Below are positions 2,508 to 15,590 of a stretch of DNA of 20,000 bases, in pieces; the first letter of the stretch is position 1; each line of letters starts with the position of its first letter. A program made the position numbers and the translations under genes. The DNA comes from an uncultured virus (IMG/VR IMGVR_UViG_3300023237_000001) (Duplodnaviria > Heunggongvirae > Uroviricota > Caudoviricetes): IMG/VR virus record IMGVR_UViG_3300023237_000001; one strand, 5' to 3'. The notes below the pieces were generated by a model, which saw nothing but the letters and a program-made list of their open reading frames with translations, searched no databases and had not been told where the DNA came from.

Positions 2508-2971
2508 AGATATTGATCTTCAACTGTATCTATTTCTTCTCGTTTTAGGATTATAAATTGTAGTAAAGGTTCTTCTGATGCCTGGGCAGTCTGAGATTCA
2601 CCTAATGCTTTATATGTAATCCCTTTTATAATAAACCTATCGGCACCTGGATCAAAGTTTAAAAAACCATCTGAGTTTGCAAAACCATTATCAGATAAAT
2701 ATTTAATGTTTAAATACAGTAATAAATTTTGTTTATCAATTTCACCTGAATCTGTGGTTTTAGTACTTGGCCATGACCTATAATCATTATATTGTATTAA
2801 ACCTAAAAGTTTTGAAGATTTTGGTTTTAATAAAATATCTTCTCCATGGGTTGTGATTCCTTTGTTTATGTATTGCATAAGGGTAACTTCTTGTTTAAAG
2901 GCATCCTCATGGAAGTTATTAATAATATCTTTATAACTATCCCATTCATTTGTGGTTATATAACTTGGCAT
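2504..2971 (-). CDS. Putative head closure / stopper protein (SPP1 gp16-like)
   Basis: 155 aa, beta-rich, with a DRFIIKGITYKAL pattern. It sits directly after the adaptor gene. Confidence 0.6.
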   Translation of the reverse strand: MPSYITTNEWDSYKDIINNFHEDAFKQEVTLMQYINKGITTHGEDILLKPKSSKLLGLIQYNDYRSWPSTKTTDSGEIDKQNLLLYLNIKYLSDNGFANSDGFLNFDPGADRFIIKGITYKALGESQTAQASEEPLLQFIILKREEIDTVEDQYL

Positions 2972-3780
2972 TATCCTTGAGATGATATATTTTGATTGCC
3001 ATTACCCCCACAACAACCTGCTGTATTGGTTTTAGGTATTTGACCAATTAGTGGACCAATTACCACTTTAAATTTATCGCAGATAACTGGGATATGGATA
3101 TTTAATCTTTTTGCCAATGAACACATTGACCTGGATACTGAATCTATAGCACCTCCACTTTTTAAAGATGATGAAGAGGAACCGGCTGTATCATTTTCCC
3201 CATACCATTGTACTTCTGTGGGACCGGTAACAATTTGTTTAATTGCCCTGGATGAAGAGCTGCCTCCATTATTAGCCGCTATAATAGATGAGTTACCTTG
3301 TTGAATAAGTATATCATAGGCTACCATAGATGCCACTAATGAATTTTCTAGTGGTTCATAGTATAACTCATTAAAGATATTAGCAGATGGTATAATGTGG
3401 TTAACTAGAGGATGGATAAATAATTGTTGTTTTTGAATTAACCCGGCAAGTTCTGCCACATCATATACAACGTTTGGTGGGATATATTGATTTACTAAGG
3501 TATAAATGCTTTGAGATAATACTGGCCCAGCAGCTCTTACCCCTACAGGTAATGTTATACTGGTGGTACCTCCGGTATTTGATACAGATAAGGTAACTGT
3601 AAAAAAACCATCTCTTGTAAAATCCTTGGATGGATTTTGTAATGAGGAGGAAGTTCCATCTCCAAAATCCCATTGCCAAGCTGTCGGTCCATTTGATGAT
3701 AAATCTTGAAAGACTACTACAAATGTACCTTCAGTTGGTACGTATGTGAAATTTGAAACTGGTATAGCTGCTGGTGCCAT
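2971..3780 (-). CDS. PKD (Ig-like) domain fused to a putative head-tail adaptor
   Basis: The N-terminal ~80 aa contain the PKD signature FQDLSSNGPTAWQWDFGDGTSSSLQNPS...GFFTVTLSVSN. The C-terminal part has AIKQIVTGPTEVQWY, resembling adaptor beta-hairpin motifs, and lies at the adaptor position after the MCP. Confidence 0.75.
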   Translation of the reverse strand: MAPAAIPVSNFTYVPTEGTFVVVFQDLSSNGPTAWQWDFGDGTSSSLQNPSKDFTRDGFFTVTLSVSNTGGTTSITLPVGVRAAGPVLSQSIYTLVNQYIPPNVVYDVAELAGLIQKQQLFIHPLVNHIIPSANIFNELYYEPLENSLVASMVAYDILIQQGNSSIIAANNGGSSSSRAIKQIVTGPTEVQWYGENDTAGSSSSSLKSGGAIDSVSRSMCSLAKRLNIHIPVICDKFKVVIGPLIGQIPKTNTAGCCGGNGNQNISSQG

Positions 3781-8971: not shown

Positions 8972-10474
8972 TTATTGAGGTGCTATAACGATTTGTTTAA
9001 GTTTTCCTTTACGGATAAAATTGGTTATACATTTACCAATGATTGCATCATCATGGTAAGTATTTTCTTCATCTTCATCTCCAGATGATCTTCCTTCTTT
9101 ACCTAATGCCACAGCTTTATTTCTTTCGTTATAAATAAAGGTATAAGCTTCTTGTACAAAGAAAGGATCTTTAACTATAATTTCTTCATTCCTTATATCG
9201 GTTTCTAATTCATCTATAATAACCGGCCTATTTTTACTTGTGGTTAACCAACCGGGAATTTTTTGAATTTTACCTTTCTTTTTTCCCTTCTCTTTTACAA
9301 TCTGCTCCGAGTAGTAAAGGTTTTTATATCCGTTTGATTGAAGTTGTGAGGTTACTGCTAAACCTATATCATTAGCTTCGGGGCCTACTAGGGCATTATT
9401 ATATTTTTTTCCCCAGCTTGCAAGTAAGTCTGAAAGCTTATCCACAGGTATCTTACCTTTGAATACCGCAACCTCTTCGCCGAATTTATCCATTATTGTA
9501 AATGCGGAATAATCTCGTGACCTACCAGTTGATACATCTGAACCTATAGCATATAACATATTTTCTTTAGGTTTATTAAATACCAATAATTGACCATTTT
9601 CATGTTTACTTATTACTGGGTAGTCGGGTAATAAATCTTCAATTGCTTTAATATTTTCAAGGTCAAATACAGAATAACCAGATGTTAAGAAATCACCATC
9701 TATTTCTTGGGCTGTTCTTCTTGGGCCTAATGCTTGGGCCATAGCTATATACCAGGCATCATCCCTTTCGGGGTGCATCTGCCATCTTAATCTTATGGGG
9801 TAAAACCCTGAACCCCCGGCACAAGCATCTACCCATTCTTTATGAAAGAAATTACCAATTCCGTAAGGGGTGGAATTTAATATTGCGGAACCCCCTGTTG
9901 ATAAAGTAGGGAATGCTGCAGCCCAAATTTGGTTAGCCCATCTTACTATAGCCGCTTCATCAATTACTAAAAGTGATACAGCCTCTGATCTACCAGCATC
10001 TTCTGTTGTTGGTATAGATGTAATTGATGAACCATTAGAAAATATCATTTCTTCGGCAGTTCCAAACTCCCCTGTTCTACCATTAACTATCTTTACCATT
10101 AAATGCTCCGGTAAATTCTTATACATATATTTAATCTTACGTAAAACCTTTTTAGCAACCCTATCTTTAATTGAAATTATTTGTATGTTTTTATTGGGGT
10201 GCATCATGGCCAACCATAAAGAATACATGGCAATTAATTCTGTAAGGCCAGCTTGTCTAAATTTTAATACAATATTAAATCGGTTTTTTAAGAAAGCATA
10301 TAATACCTTCTTTTGGTAATCATAAAGTTTAAATTGAGTTTTCCCGAGTATTGGGTGAATTACATAAATAAAGGAAGAGAAAAAGAAAGGATCCTTACTC
10401 GCTTGTAATAATTCATTGAATTGCCTTGTGGTTAAAGCCTTCTTAATTATGTTTTTTAAATTGTCTCTTGCCAT
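8972..10474 (-). CDS. terL: Terminase large subunit (Terminase_6 / T4 gp17-like ATPase-nuclease)
   Basis: Adenine-binding LYDYQK, Walker A variant KFRQAGLT, Walker B LLVIDEAA, coupling motif STPYG, and RNase H-like nuclease motifs IGSDVSTGRSRDYS and HDDAII. Confidence 0.95.
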   Translation of the reverse strand: MARDNLKNIIKKALTTRQFNELLQASKDPFFFSSFIYVIHPILGKTQFKLYDYQKKVLYAFLKNRFNIVLKFRQAGLTELIAMYSLWLAMMHPNKNIQIISIKDRVAKKVLRKIKYMYKNLPEHLMVKIVNGRTGEFGTAEEMIFSNGSSITSIPTTEDAGRSEAVSLLVIDEAAIVRWANQIWAAAFPTLSTGGSAILNSTPYGIGNFFHKEWVDACAGGSGFYPIRLRWQMHPERDDAWYIAMAQALGPRRTAQEIDGDFLTSGYSVFDLENIKAIEDLLPDYPVISKHENGQLLVFNKPKENMLYAIGSDVSTGRSRDYSAFTIMDKFGEEVAVFKGKIPVDKLSDLLASWGKKYNNALVGPEANDIGLAVTSQLQSNGYKNLYYSEQIVKEKGKKKGKIQKIPGWLTTSKNRPVIIDELETDIRNEEIIVKDPFFVQEAYTFIYNERNKAVALGKEGRSSGDEDEENTYHDDAIIGKCITNFIRKGKLKQIVIAPQ

Positions 10475-11160
10475 TATTTAATCCTTAAAGCTGCTCCTAT
10501 GGTTAAAAATAGATCGGGGTTGGATTTAACTGTTACTATGGAGTTAGCCTCAACCAAAATTGTTTTATAATTTACCTGATACCTTAACCCAATGTAGGGA
10601 TTTTTATTAAGTATGGAATAACCAGCGGTACCATAGAGTTCGCTTATTAAATTTGGATCAGGATTTTTGGCTTTATCATATATTAAACTATCCCCGGTAT
10701 GGGTGTAGTCATACTTATTTAAAAATAAAGGGTATTTACTTGTTTCTATACCCCCAGATATATTCAAAAGGGTTAATTCTAGCTCGTTTTGGGTAAGTCC
10801 TAGAGTAATTAACTTTGGTTTATTAGGGAAATTAACCAGATAGTTTTTTGCAATTTCTAGAGAATCTTTAAGTTCATCCACTAAAAGAAGGATTGAATCA
10901 GGGGTAATTTCTATCCGGGTTGGTATATACTCTGGTAAGTATTTTATAACCTGACTGGGTGGGGCGTATTGACCTTCCCTAATAATTTTTTCCATCTTAA
11001 CCAGAAAGTCGGGTGAAAATTCTTTGGGAAGGTAAATGGTATCTGTGGTATTGCTATGGTCTTTTACCTTTACTTCCTTAATTCTTGGGTTATTATAAAA
11101 CCAATATAATAAGATGATGATAAGGATAAACTGTATTAGCATTATTACCTTTAATTTCAT
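10474..11160 (-). CDS. N-terminally membrane-anchored protein, candidate spanin-like lysis accessory
   Basis: N-terminal hydrophobic helix VIMLIQFILIIILLYWFY, a TTDTIY motif, and C-terminal alternating beta-strands (LYGTAGYS, PYIGLRYQV, LFLTIGAALRI). Adjacent to the endolysin. The function is inferred. Confidence 0.55.
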   Translation of the reverse strand: MKLKVIMLIQFILIIILLYWFYNNPRIKEVKVKDHSNTTDTIYLPKEFSPDFLVKMEKIIREGQYAPPSQVIKYLPEYIPTRIEITPDSILLLVDELKDSLEIAKNYLVNFPNKPKLITLGLTQNELELTLLNISGGIETSKYPLFLNKYDYTHTGDSLIYDKAKNPDPNLISELYGTAGYSILNKNPYIGLRYQVNYKTILVEANSIVTVKSNPDLFLTIGAALRIK

Positions 11161-11191: not shown

Positions 11192-11318
11192 AAACCCTTA
11201 TGCGTGTGTGCGTAAAGGTTTAAGGGTAAAGGTTATAATAGGTTAGAATAATATATTATAATAAGAATACCCCCCTTAAAGGGGGTATATATTATGATGT
11301 ATTATTATTAAACCCTTA
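11192..11318. other. Intergenic structured element with two long hairpins
   Basis: Hairpin 1: AAACCCTTATGCG (11192-11204) / TGCGTAAAGGTTT (11209-11221). Hairpin 2: AATAATATATTATAAT (11247-11262) + ATACCCCC (11267-11274) / GGGGGTAT (11281-11288) + ATTATGATGTATTATT (11291-11306). Confidence 0.7.
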
Positions 11319-11374: not shown

Positions 11375-12052
11375 TTATCTCCTATGTTTTTCTTTAGGGT
11401 TAGAATGGTTAACCGTTCTTTTTTTAACAGGCTTTATAAAATGATTATTCAAGGCCTTTATAAAATCAGGTTGAGGGAATATATCATCTTTATCCTTTCT
11501 AACTTTTGAATGAGCATAAATACCTGGCTTTCTATAATCAATTACAGATTGATCAAAATCAAATATCTTATCAAAATTATCCGGTAGAGTTATTCCTGGA
11601 AATCTAATTAATAATTCTTCTGTTAATTTAACCACAGCTATTATCTGGGCCTTAGTTATTTTTTGGTAATATCGGTTACCTCTAAATAATTTTTTCAACT
11701 TACATACTTCAACCTCAGGTACTATTTGTTTATAGGCATCATAAAACTTATTTCCTTTTTTGGTTAACCTACCCATAGAAACAACCTCAATTCCAACCCC
11801 ATGCCTTTCATGGAAATTATCATCTCCTTTAATTCCTAAATGATAAGCAAAGGCTTCAGGATTAAAACATTCTACCACTTGTCCTTTTCTACCCACTAAA
11901 TAAGCGGTACCGACTCTAGTCTTAGTTTGATTCCACCAATTCCATGAAGATAACCAGGAAGATGATACTGTATGATGATACCATAAAGAAAATTTATTTC
12001 GAGTAGCCGGTAAATACTGACCCTTATCCAGGTATTTTTTAATTATTTTCAT
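11375..12052 (-). CDS. Endolysin, N-acetylmuramoyl-L-alanine amidase (Amidase_2 / PGRP fold)
   Basis: Zn-amidase motifs YHHT, AYLVGRKG, AYHLG, GIEV and AHSKVRKDKDDIFP. Confidence 0.88.
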   Translation of the reverse strand: MKIIKKYLDKGQYLPATRNKFSLWYHHTVSSSWLSSWNWWNQTKTRVGTAYLVGRKGQVVECFNPEAFAYHLGIKGDDNFHERHGVGIEVVSMGRLTKKGNKFYDAYKQIVPEVEVCKLKKLFRGNRYYQKITKAQIIAVVKLTEELLIRFPGITLPDNFDKIFDFDQSVIDYRKPGIYAHSKVRKDKDDIFPQPDFIKALNNHFIKPVKKRTVNHSNPKEKHRR

Positions 12053-13055
12053 ATTCCTTTATTTTGTTTTTAAACCATAATCCAATCTCGTAAGGCGGGC
12101 ATTTAGTTACTGTTACTCTTGCTTTATTTAACCAGTAATTCCATTGTTCATCATCATAATGTAATTTAAACTTTTCGGGTATACCCTGTATAGTGGCTAA
12201 TTGCCTTGGTGATAATGCATTACCTTTATGATCAAATTGTCGGGTTTCCTTACGGGCGGTCATTGGTGGTTCATCCCTCATATTACGATATACCCCCGGT
12301 AAATTTTTCATTTTAGTACCCGGCATTGCCCAGCGTTTTTCACCCTTATACTGTTTATTCCAAACCTTTTTTGTTTGTTTTAAGGTTAATTGTTTACCAT
12401 CAATATACATAGGTACCAATTTATCGGGGTCTTCTCTATAATTATTATCAAATGCCAAAGCCGCTTCAATCATTAATTCCCCCGCAGTGGTAGGCCTGGT
12501 TACTAAAGGTACAAACTTAAAAATTTTATCTGCTTTTTTACCTTGATCTTTTCTTATACCAATTAATACCAACCTAATTCTGTTTACCTGTGAATTACCG
12601 AATTCTTTAACAGAACCTTCTATAGTTTTAAACCTATATTCAGAAGATAATAATTCAATCATTTGAGTATAGGTATTTGTTTCTTTAAACTTAATTAGGT
12701 TTTCCATTAAAAACACTTTAGGTTTAAAATGTTGAACAGATGATATATATTGAGCTATTGAAACATTATCTTTGGGATCATGGGTCTTTTTTGCCCGGGA
12801 ATAAGATAATATTGAACTATGCCCACAATCGGGTGCGCCTATTATATAATCTATGCTACTGGGCATATCCATAGCTTCTTTGTAGTTATTTAAAGTCTTA
12901 TAATAGGGGATATTATAAAAATTGGTAAACCATTGTTCTAAATGCTTAGTATGGAATGCCACCCGCGGTTCAATATTCCCAATAACATATTTCTTTTTAA
13001 AGGGGTGTAATAAAACTCCATTACCAGCACAAACCCCTAGGACGGTATACTTCAT
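12039..13055 (-). CDS. Divergent C5-cytosine DNA methyltransferase-fold protein
   Basis: Motifs occur in canonical order: I VCAGNG, II NIE, IV GAPDC (C77), VI FLMENL, VIII QVNRIRLVLIG, IX LSPRQLATIQGIP, X VTKCPP. The gene overlaps the endolysin start by 14 nt. Confidence 0.85.
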   Translation of the reverse strand: MKYTVLGVCAGNGVLLHPFKKKYVIGNIEPRVAFHTKHLEQWFTNFYNIPYYKTLNNYKEAMDMPSSIDYIIGAPDCGHSSILSYSRAKKTHDPKDNVSIAQYISSVQHFKPKVFLMENLIKFKETNTYTQMIELLSSEYRFKTIEGSVKEFGNSQVNRIRLVLIGIRKDQGKKADKIFKFVPLVTRPTTAGELMIEAALAFDNNYREDPDKLVPMYIDGKQLTLKQTKKVWNKQYKGEKRWAMPGTKMKNLPGVYRNMRDEPPMTARKETRQFDHKGNALSPRQLATIQGIPEKFKLHYDDEQWNYWLNKARVTVTKCPPYEIGLWFKNKIKEYENN

Positions 13056-14804: not shown

Positions 14805-15590
14805 TTAGGTATTATGTTGTTTAAGCATACCCCTTTCATTGTAAAATACATGTAGTGATGTTATATGCATATATAATTTACCAGGAGGTATGCCAGTGGT
14901 TTGACCTACATACTGGGTTAATCGTGATGCTAGGTAAACATCATCTCTAAAATGCCTTAAGTAATCGCATGACCTAATATAATAATGGCAATCTAATTTT
15001 CCTCTTACATTATAAAAATGGTAACCCAAAGTACAAGGCACCCTTTCATTCATAACATTACCCGTATCTTCTGGAAACCATATAGGTAAATATGCTTGCC
15101 GAGTAGTTGGGTCATTCCTTAATAATTCTATTATATCACCAAGATCACCAAGATTATATCTTATACCCTTATTTATGGAAATATTCAATCCTATTTTTAG
15201 CATTTGTAATGATAAATGTTTATCATCAAACCTACCGGCAAGCTTAGGCCAAATTCTTTCCATATAAGAATGAGAGAATTGATTATTGGTATTTCTAAAT
15301 TTATCGTCTTCTGGTTTACGTTGGTAAAACCTCCAATTTTTATATTCATTACCTGGGTTTAAAGGTAAACCGCCAATTCTTTCTTCGAAATGATTTTCTG
15401 CCCAAGGTAATTGGGGTTTTAGTAAGTGTAATTCATCAACGGTTTCGGGAATTGGAAATTCGAATAACACTGGAGATAATTCAAATGTATCATCTGGGCT
15501 TTGTATTGATTGCCATGTTTTTTGTTTTACTTTAATACCATGTTTTACAAATGTGTTTTTCAAATTTGCTATGTTACCTTCTCTATACAT
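14805..15590 (-). CDS. Thymidylate synthase-superfamily enzyme, probably dCMP-specific (hydroxymethylase/methylase-like)
   Basis: DPTTRQ, catalytic VPC (C186), RSCD (206-209), Asp217 at the E. coli ThyA Asn177 position, and SLHVF. The N-terminus (HFEERIGGLPLNPG) is unlike canonical ThyA. Confidence 0.85.
   Translation of the reverse strand: MYREGNIANLKNTFVKHGIKVKQKTWQSIQSPDDTFELSPVLFEFPIPETVDELHLLKPQLPWAENHFEERIGGLPLNPGNEYKNWRFYQRKPEDDKFRNTNNQFSHSYMERIWPKLAGRFDDKHLSLQMLKIGLNISINKGIRYNLGDLGDIIELLRNDPTTRQAYLPIWFPEDTGNVMNERVPCTLGYHFYNVRGKLDCHYYIRSCDYLRHFRDDVYLASRLTQYVGQTTGIPPGKLYMHITSLHVFYNERGMLKQHNT

Follow-up and report, generated by a model that had tools for sequence, protein, structure and literature searches.

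A tailed-phage enzyme of the cytosine C5-methyltransferase fold with a natural motif X lysine and a gp42-like partner: a candidate for non-methyl modification of phage DNA

INTRODUCTION

Natural 5-carboxymethylcytosine and the enzyme that makes it, CmoX, became known as recently as December 2025 (PMC12783734). SpCmoX from Synechococcus phage S-B43 (PDB 8YF3) combines the cytosine C5-methyltransferase (C5-MTase) fold with a cationic residue in motif X and a small residue after the catalytic Cys; its Arg350 was equated with Asn304 of M.HhaI and contacts the carboxymethyl group of carboxy-S-adenosylmethionine (carboxy-SAM), and the R350N mutant is dead (PMC12783734). Single-site laboratory changes at the equivalent pocket position, N374K in M.MpeI and Y205K/R in M.CviPI, also confer carboxy-SAM activity (PMC13288465; PMC12783734). 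Here we analyzed a natural protein that shares these features, an enzyme of 338 amino acids (aa) encoded at positions 12039..13055 on the minus strand of a 20,000-nt stretch of DNA (hereafter the window) from the uncultured tailed phage IMGVR_UViG_3300023237_000001. An earlier note, made from the letters of this stretch, had described it as a C5-MTase-fold enzyme in which Lys318 replaces the conserved motif X Asn, had likened it to M.MpeI N374K and to natural basic-pocket enzymes using carboxy-SAM, and had proposed that it may transfer something other than a methyl group. The likeness to M.MpeI N374K and to natural CmoX with its Arg350 proved apt (PMC12783734; PMC13288465). The Lys of the window differs from the engineered ones in being natural, in being accompanied by changes in motifs I and IV and in having no encoded source of carboxy-SAM beside it.

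A basic residue at the motif X site is suggestive, not diagnostic, of a change of donor, because mouse DNMT3A (R887) and DNMT3B (R839) carry a natural Arg at the same position and are nevertheless proven animal methylases, outside any phage context, that use S-adenosylmethionine (AdoMet or SAM) (PMC13594970); M.CviPI naturally has Tyr there (PMC13288465). The other described system that bears on this locus is that of phage T4, with gp42 and the post-replicative decoration of 5-hydroxymethylcytosine (5hmC) (PMC8670742, PMC13326640). Hypermodified pyrimidines usually arise by late transfer of a group onto a hydroxyl that is already in place (PMC13326640), and an Asp at position 177 of the gp42-type enzyme marks phage contigs with modified cytosine (PMC8670742).

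We found that the enzyme of the window belongs to a phage-only clade with a remodelled pocket around the transferred group, and the genes that accompany it are suggestive of a non-methyl mark on the phage DNA. In the open-access literature we found no paper on a natural enzyme of this Lys type or on gp42-like genes as partners of a C5-MTase-fold enzyme.

RESULTS

The catalytic residues are kept and the cofactor-side motifs are rewritten

The open reading frame (ORF) starts with ATG, and its product matches Pfam PF00145 with E 2.1e-18 and 67.3 bits (cut-off 22), the match stopping short of motif X at residue 304, which corresponds to position 301 of the 324 in the profile. Against the NCBIfam dcm profile (TIGR00675) the protein scores 45.1 bits, which is below the cut-off of 100.65. 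An AlphaFold2 (AF2) model computed from a 54-sequence alignment reached a predicted local distance difference test score (pLDDT) of 91.9 and a predicted template modelling score (pTM) of 0.90. Its sole uncertain stretch is formed by residues 80-92, directly after motif IV, where C5-MTases have their flexible catalytic loop. In structural alignments with VIA-align the model matched mouse DNMT1 with Z 25.4 (root mean square deviation, rmsd, 2.9; 305 residues aligned), M.HhaI with Z 23.4 and SpCmoX (8YF3) with Z 23.1 (rmsd 3.4; 289 residues aligned), and a Foldseek search placed 8YF3 on top at E 5.7e-14, barely ahead of ordinary methylases. The protein thus has the two-domain C5-MTase fold both in the AF2 model and in the VIA-align comparisons.

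For the analysis of conservation we used a family alignment of 152 sequences, composed of the query and the 151 proteins of the set P0001-P0160 with at least 300 aa. The catalytic set is complete: Cys77 of motif IV (P75-D76-C77-G78, 12822..12833, minus strand as for all sites given here), E118-N119 of motif VI (12699..12704) and R159-x-R161 of motif VIII (12573..12581) are each present in 152/152 sequences, in agreement with the earlier note. Since all residues needed for the covalent attack on C6 are conserved, the protein is predicted to be an active cytosine-directed enzyme. The same note had called the cofactor-side motifs rewritten, and the alignment bears this out. Motif I reads V8-C-A-G-N-G13 (13017..13034), a Gly-rich loop (G11 151/152, N12 140/152, G13 152/152) with Val or Ile in place of the usual Phe, and motif IV has an acid before the catalytic Cys and Gly in place of the usual Gln (D76 137/152, G78 151/152, H79 133/152). 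The motif II acid Glu29 (12969..12971) is kept in 152/152, as is K311. In the sister clade described below, the equivalent of Glu29 aligns by hhalign with Glu47 of SpCmoX, which binds the cofactor ribose (PMC12783734).

When compared with M.HhaI, M.HaeIII and DNMT1, the enzyme shares the whole-length fold, the catalytic Cys, E-N-(V/L), R-x-R and the motif IX helix, whereas it has Lys instead of the motif X Asn, D-C-G instead of P-C-Q and no motif I Phe, and the helix before motif X is ~7 residues longer. Compared with SpCmoX, to which it is ~16-18% identical, it has A-P-D-C-G and Lys where SpCmoX has S-P-P-C-S and Arg. As judged from these alignments, the pocket is rebuilt at two sites, with Gly78 for the Gln of P-C-Q and Lys318 for the motif X Asn, and Cys77 is flanked by Asp76 and His79 as new ionisable neighbours.

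Lys318 is placed at the motif X Asn site

Lys318 (codon 12102..12104, minus strand) was invariant in the 54-sequence alignment, and in the larger alignment position 318 is Lys in 144/152 sequences, Ser in four, Gln in two and Asn in two. The conservation of Lys318 and of the catalytic residues is far beyond chance. The register of this stretch is not self-evident. In a group of distant relatives motif X is clear and reads Q-T-G-K-x-M-P (with Arg at the fourth position in one and Asn in another), and Pfam aligns these proteins, below called the QTGK clade, through to the end of the PF00145 model. An hhalign comparison of the family with 15 QTGK relatives (probability 100%, E 1.7e-52) sets K318 opposite the QTGK Lys, and a second one of the QTGK relatives with SpCmoX (probability 98.5%, E 3.6e-15) sets that Lys opposite Arg350. 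In the AF2 model K318-C-P-P forms the loop that joins the last two helices (302-317 and 322-337). The range offsets of the VIA-align comparisons, in which model residues 1-338 correspond to M.HhaI 10-324 and the mouse DNMT1 match ends at 1600, translate 318 into N304 and N1580, as ranges and not as a residue-level superposition; N1580 is named as the motif X residue of mouse DNMT1 (PMC13594970).

Two more direct approaches gave no information on this point: the hhalign comparison of the family with SpCmoX itself stops at residue 301, and a pairwise search against solved structures was too weak to place motif X. An alternative register, in which a HMMER profile alignment to M.HaeIII equates K311-G312 with the G-N of motif X, was rejected because the hhalign chain and the secondary structure disagree with it; the longer helix before motif X probably caused this mis-register. 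Since the two chained profile alignments, the secondary structure and the range offsets agree, we accept the register of the earlier note and place Lys318, on alignment and model, at the motif X Asn site (M.HhaI N304, SpCmoX R350).

The enzyme belongs to a phage clade with a ligase-linked sister clade

A word-indexed search returned 404 relatives at E <= 1e-3, of which one is 72% identical and the others at most 50%. In an exhaustive search of representatives, 45 clusters at E <= 1e-30 were followed by a steep fall to ordinary C5-MTases. Only two relatives were found among GenBank phages, both uncultured and with 41-42% identity, while in the genome collection relatives occur on two contigs of metagenome-assembled genomes (MAGs) that look like binned phage DNA. 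One MAG contig (L143, 83,107 bases) is labelled 'uncultured archaeon'; its size and genes fit a complete phage genome of the window's clade, and it was probably mis-binned. A search for fused forms of 593-2000 aa found none, which is weak evidence. The features common to what we call the Lys-pocket enzymes, a P-(D/E)-C-G motif IV, Lys or Arg at the motif X Asn and a gp42-like homologue of ThyA, are all present in the window.

The QTGK proteins form a sister clade, ~28% identical to the window's clade by hhalign and with P-(E/D)-C-G as motif IV. Using a 6-sequence alignment as query we gathered 49 loci, in which a gene order is kept: ligase, dUTPase_2-like gene, C5-MTase-like gene, in some loci an N6/N4 DNA methylase, ThyA-like gene, dCMP deaminase and family A DNA polymerase. 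The ThyA-like gene is present in 41/49 loci, usually within ~2.5 kb of the MTase-like gene, and an AsnB-like ligase with a glutamine-amidotransferase domain adjoins the QTGK gene in 43/49. Over its full length this ligase is 29% identical (151 bits, E 2e-45) to a 465-aa ligase located directly upstream of true CmoX genes, compared to 73 bits against E. coli AsnB; its likeness to SpCmoY is confined to the PP-loop. Because a CmoX-type ligase adjoins the gene, the sister-clade locus argues for a carboxyl-bearing product of the Lys-pocket enzymes there. QTGK enzymes (proteins P0209 and P0218; loci L091, L092 and L100) occur fused to an N6/N4 DNA methylase domain, and most members of the clade have a Cys-rich C-terminal tail that is not found in the window's protein.

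The gene partners of CmoX and of the Lys-pocket enzymes are complementary

To see which genes accompany the enzyme we analyzed 19 genomes of the window's clade and 25 of the QTGK sister clade, 11 of each being at least 90% complete. Searches with the TIGR00740 profile, which recovered the cmoA of S-B43 at E 2.5e-34 as positive control, found cmoA in 0/19 genomes of the window's clade and in 0/25 genomes of the sister clade, and gave no hit in the nearest record (G001); the ORF scans of the window itself gave no CmoA-like synthase either, as the earlier note had stated. The CmoA cut-off was passed by one of 14 control genomes, that of E. coli. The AsnB-like ligase (PF00733) was absent from all 19 genomes of the window's clade, and was found in the three QTGK genomes tested (3/3) and in S-B43. 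Thus SpCmoX shares its type of Gln-dependent ligase neighbour with the sister clade and not with the window's clade. Of the two kinds of co-occurring genes that the earlier note had named as worth checking, amide ligases are therefore linked to the sister clade only, and cmoA to neither clade.

In the opposite direction, we searched 121 loci around true CmoX genes, which are mostly short fragments with flanks of at most 8 kb. An ORF similar to SpCmoA was found in 96/121 of them and a gp42-like gene in 0/121, and the whole genome of S-B43 has no gp42-like gene. In contrast, the window encodes at 14805..15590 (minus strand) a thymidylate-synthase homologue of 261 aa similar to T4 gp42 (PF00303, E 7.7e-14). 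Such a gene is present in 16/19 genomes of the window's clade (15 by PF00303 and G004 by protein query), the remaining three being 54-63% complete, and in 25/25 genomes of the sister clade (16 by Pfam and 9 by protein query). PF00303 under-detects divergent gp42-like genes, as 9/25 and 1/19 were missed by it and recovered with the window's protein as query. All 22 genomes of both clades that are at least 90% complete carry the gene. We conclude that the partners are complementary: CmoX occurs with CmoA, the Lys-pocket enzymes with a gp42-like enzyme. Single in-frame TAA codons were seen in four of the gp42-like matches (G008:C1:82599-83096, G011:C1:66463-66951, G012:C1:48905-49402 and G013:C1:24475-24963), which could be sequencing artefacts, stop codons that are read through or signs of a broken gene.

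For closer evaluation of the partner we aligned it with MAFFT to T4 gp42, the SPO1 and Vi01 homologues, the canonical ThyA of relatives and homologues from both Lys clades. The catalytic Cys is Cys186, and Asp217 (14940-14942) stands at the site of E. coli N177, with Thr at the H147 site, exactly as in T4 gp42. The partners from both Lys clades have Asp at the N177 site and Thr or Ser at the H147 site, while SPO1, Vi01 and canonical ThyA have Asn at the former. Since D169 is kept, the enzyme is not of the type described as 5-hydroxy-dCMP synthase (PMC13326640). These residues predict dCMP as substrate and hydroxymethylation (or methylation) at C5, so that the cytosines of this phage would be modified before they enter DNA. 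In a complete relative (G002), ThyA-like, PolA and dNK-like kinase genes stand together, and a divergent MazZ-like dATP/dGTP pyrophosphohydrolase (PF04447; L144:2055-2918, minus strand) adjoins the MTase-like gene and may act as a cleaner of the nucleotide pool for base replacement. The locus and its relatives share with T4 the Asp at the N177 site, a late enzyme acting at DNA level and this context of kinase and NTP-pyrophosphatase; the decorating enzymes of T4-type systems are, however, glucosyl-, arabinosyl- and carbamoyl-transferases, whereas the candidate of the window has the C5-MTase fold (PMC8670742, PMC13326640).

The gene heads a late operon

The window is part of a tailed phage with terminase large subunit (TerL), portal, protease and major head protein and a G+C content of ~33%. 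We compared it with 52 related loci, including that of the window's own phage (L003, 100% identity). In 51/52 of them the MTase-like gene heads the rightward late module, followed by an endolysin or other small gene, an ORF of ~230 aa, TerL, portal, protease and major head protein, and preceded by small divergent genes. In the window the next gene is an Amidase_2 endolysin (11375..12052, minus strand; PF01510, E 7.7e-10; homologue in 23/52 loci), whose start overlaps the stop of the MTase-like gene by 14 nt. Between this gene and the following ORF lies a G+C-rich perfect hairpin with T-runs on both strands (11267..11288, minus strand), one of nine terminator-like sites in the scan compared to 4.1 +/- 1.8 in shuffled sequences, and it may be a terminator between the MTase-like/amidase pair and the packaging genes. 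Promoter-like sites were no more frequent than expected by chance (29 found, 29.5 expected).

The conserved ORF directly upstream of TerL (10474..11160, minus strand) encodes 228 aa with a hydrophobic N-terminus and has a homologue in 34/52 loci and no family match. It occupies the place expected for a small terminase, and no recognisable small terminase subunit is present. TerL itself (8972..10474, minus strand; phrog_2, E 7e-38; homologue in 51/52 loci) heads the packaging and head module and has no close relative from a cultured phage. In 13 related loci (L005, L008, L027, L029, L031, L037, L039, L042, L043, L045, L046, L051 and L053) TerL is 818-1170 aa long compared to the usual ~500 aa, which may be due to an intein or an inserted domain. 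For the small ORFs that lie between the MTase-like and gp42-like genes no name was obtained from PHROGs, Pfam or NCBIfam, and a 269-aa protein of the structural module (2971-3780, minus strand) contains a PKD domain.

DISCUSSION

A late enzyme that may act on 5hmC DNA

We tentatively favour, while rating it at somewhat less than an even chance, that the enzyme is expressed late and further modifies the 5hmC DNA of the phage to a non-methyl adduct. We prefer it because the partner genes form a complementary pattern and because a ligase accompanies the sister clade. As the phage encodes a gp42-like, dCMP-specific enzyme, its cytosines would probably already carry a 5-hydroxymethyl group, and as the MTase-like gene comes first in the late lysis and packaging operon, its product would act on replicated phage DNA just before packaging. 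The 5hmC would be flipped out of the helix and Cys77 added to C6, a step common to every C5-MTase, whereupon the 5-CH2OH group may be activated or alkylated by means of Asp76, His79 and Lys318. This would leave a substituent other than methyl, larger and probably bearing an acid, which the Gln-dependent ligase of the sister clade would then amidate. Such chemistry is plausible by analogy, though unprecedented in nature: covalent complexes of C5-MTases with 5hmC DNA are known, an engineered M.SssI joins thiols to 5hmC in vitro (PMC7176277), and dehydroxymethylation of 5hmC by C5-MTases has been reported (PMC11347137). What part Lys318, Asp76 and His79 play is inferred in these steps, as are the presence of 5hmC in the DNA, its use as substrate and the nature of the added group.

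Several observations weigh against an action on 5hmC. The 5hmC of this phage is a prediction from the gp42-like gene, and replacement of cytosine could be partial; family scans of the window ORFs revealed no recognisable dCTPase. We know of no natural enzyme of the C5-MTase fold with 5hmC as substrate. A SAM-type cofactor is probably still bound, because the putative ribose-binding Glu29 and the Gly-rich loop are conserved, and this would fit ordinary alkyl transfer equally well. The co-occurrence with the gp42-like gene may stem from shared descent of two related phage lineages instead of functional coupling. The gene order of the sister clade, with a dCMP deaminase after the gp42-like gene, would allow the product to be channelled to uracil derivatives, leaving the cytosines free. 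Finally, as none of the 19 genomes of the window's clade has the ligase, an acid-bearing product is here no more than an extrapolation from the sister clade.

A wider version of the same idea, that the Lys-pocket enzymes as a group carry out the DNA-level step of an undescribed hypermodification, in which, after addition of the Cys to C6, the 5-CH2OH group of 5hmC made by the gp42-like enzyme is displaced or alkylated with Asp76, His79 and Lys318, an acid-bearing group is attached and the sister-clade ligase amidates it, appears doubtful to us.

Alternative explanations

The next best explanation, which we consider unlikely, is that the enzyme is a carboxymethyltransferase similar to CmoX, with Lys318 pairing with the carboxylate of carboxy-SAM and free cytosine being converted to 5-carboxymethylcytosine, which would stay un-amidated in the window's clade. 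This is the donor that the earlier note had considered, and parts of its argument hold. A cationic residue stands at the site where natural SpCmoX binds the carboxylate through Arg350, Gly78 after the catalytic Cys parallels the Ser that SpCmoX has for Gln, 8YF3 is the top Foldseek match, if in a near tie with ordinary MTases, and the ligase adjoining 43/49 sister-clade genes is closer to the CmoX-adjacent ligase (151 bits) than to E. coli AsnB (73 bits). Others do not: the window's own clade has no such ligase, the Arg of DNMT3A and DNMT3B shows that a basic residue can serve AdoMet, and the gp42-like partner would occupy C5 before carboxymethylation at DNA level could take place. Moreover, with cmoA found in 0/19 and 0/25 genomes (22 of the 44 being at least 90% complete), compared to its presence at 96/121 true CmoX loci, carboxy-SAM would have to be made by the host. 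The CmoA of E. coli as host did suffice in vivo for SpCmoX (PMC12783734), but for this phage a host source is assumed, and among the 14 control genomes only E. coli passed the CmoA cut-off. The features that delimit CmoX in its description, namely S-P-P-C, Arg at the N304 position, a co-encoded CmoA and a neighbouring ligase of CmoY type (PMC12783734), are missing here, and the acidic Asp76 beside Cys77 could neutralise Lys318.

We regard it as slightly less likely still that the protein is an ordinary SAM-dependent methyltransferase making 5-methylcytosine, in which Lys318 and the other motif changes are lineage variants and which protects residual cytosines or has a regulatory role. All residues for methyl transfer are intact, the fold matches with Z 23-25, and true methylases exist that lack Asn at the site, with Arg in DNMT3A (R887) and DNMT3B (R839) (PMC13594970) and Tyr in M.CviPI (PMC13288465). 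Position 318 is Ser, Gln or Asn in eight of the 152 sequences, the window's clade has no gene for donor synthesis or for a follow-up step (cmoA 0/19, ligase 0/19), and in the sister clade a standard N6/N4 DNA methylase lies next to members or is fused to them. However, Lys or Arg has been kept across two deep clades that are ~28% identical, and so have G78 and an acid preceding the Cys, and the score of 45 bits against the dcm profile is far from its cut-off of 100.65. The tight linkage of the sister clade to an amide ligase would be pointless for a methyl product, and the constant gp42-like partner would leave little substrate.

It is highly improbable that SAM donates another group such as 3-amino-3-carboxypropyl to C5 or to the 5-CH2OH oxygen, with Lys318 holding its carboxylate and the sister clade amidating it, since the C5-MTase fold gives no precedent and the sequence no specific sign, although enzymes of other families are known to transfer the aminocarboxypropyl group of SAM to N, C and O acceptors, no cmoA would be needed (in keeping with 0/44 genomes), and the sister-clade ligase and the conserved adenosine-side residues (Glu29, Gly loop) would be explained.

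Implications

The published definition of CmoX by S-P-P-C and Arg misses the Lys-bearing superclade. If its members use carboxy-SAM, the family of natural carboxymethyltransferases would be widened, and Lys-type enzymes with new sequence specificities would become available for sequencing chemistry of the DM-Seq type. The gene set, composed of the Lys-pocket enzyme, the gp42-like enzyme and in some lineages the ligase, is small enough for reconstitution in E. coli. If, as we tentatively favour, 5hmC is the substrate, the reaction would be one known so far solely as an in-vitro side activity of methyltransferases, and its product a DNA base that has never been measured. This would amount to a new enzymatic route to hypermodified cytosines, which would bear on the escape of phages from restriction as well as on tools for DNA labelling.

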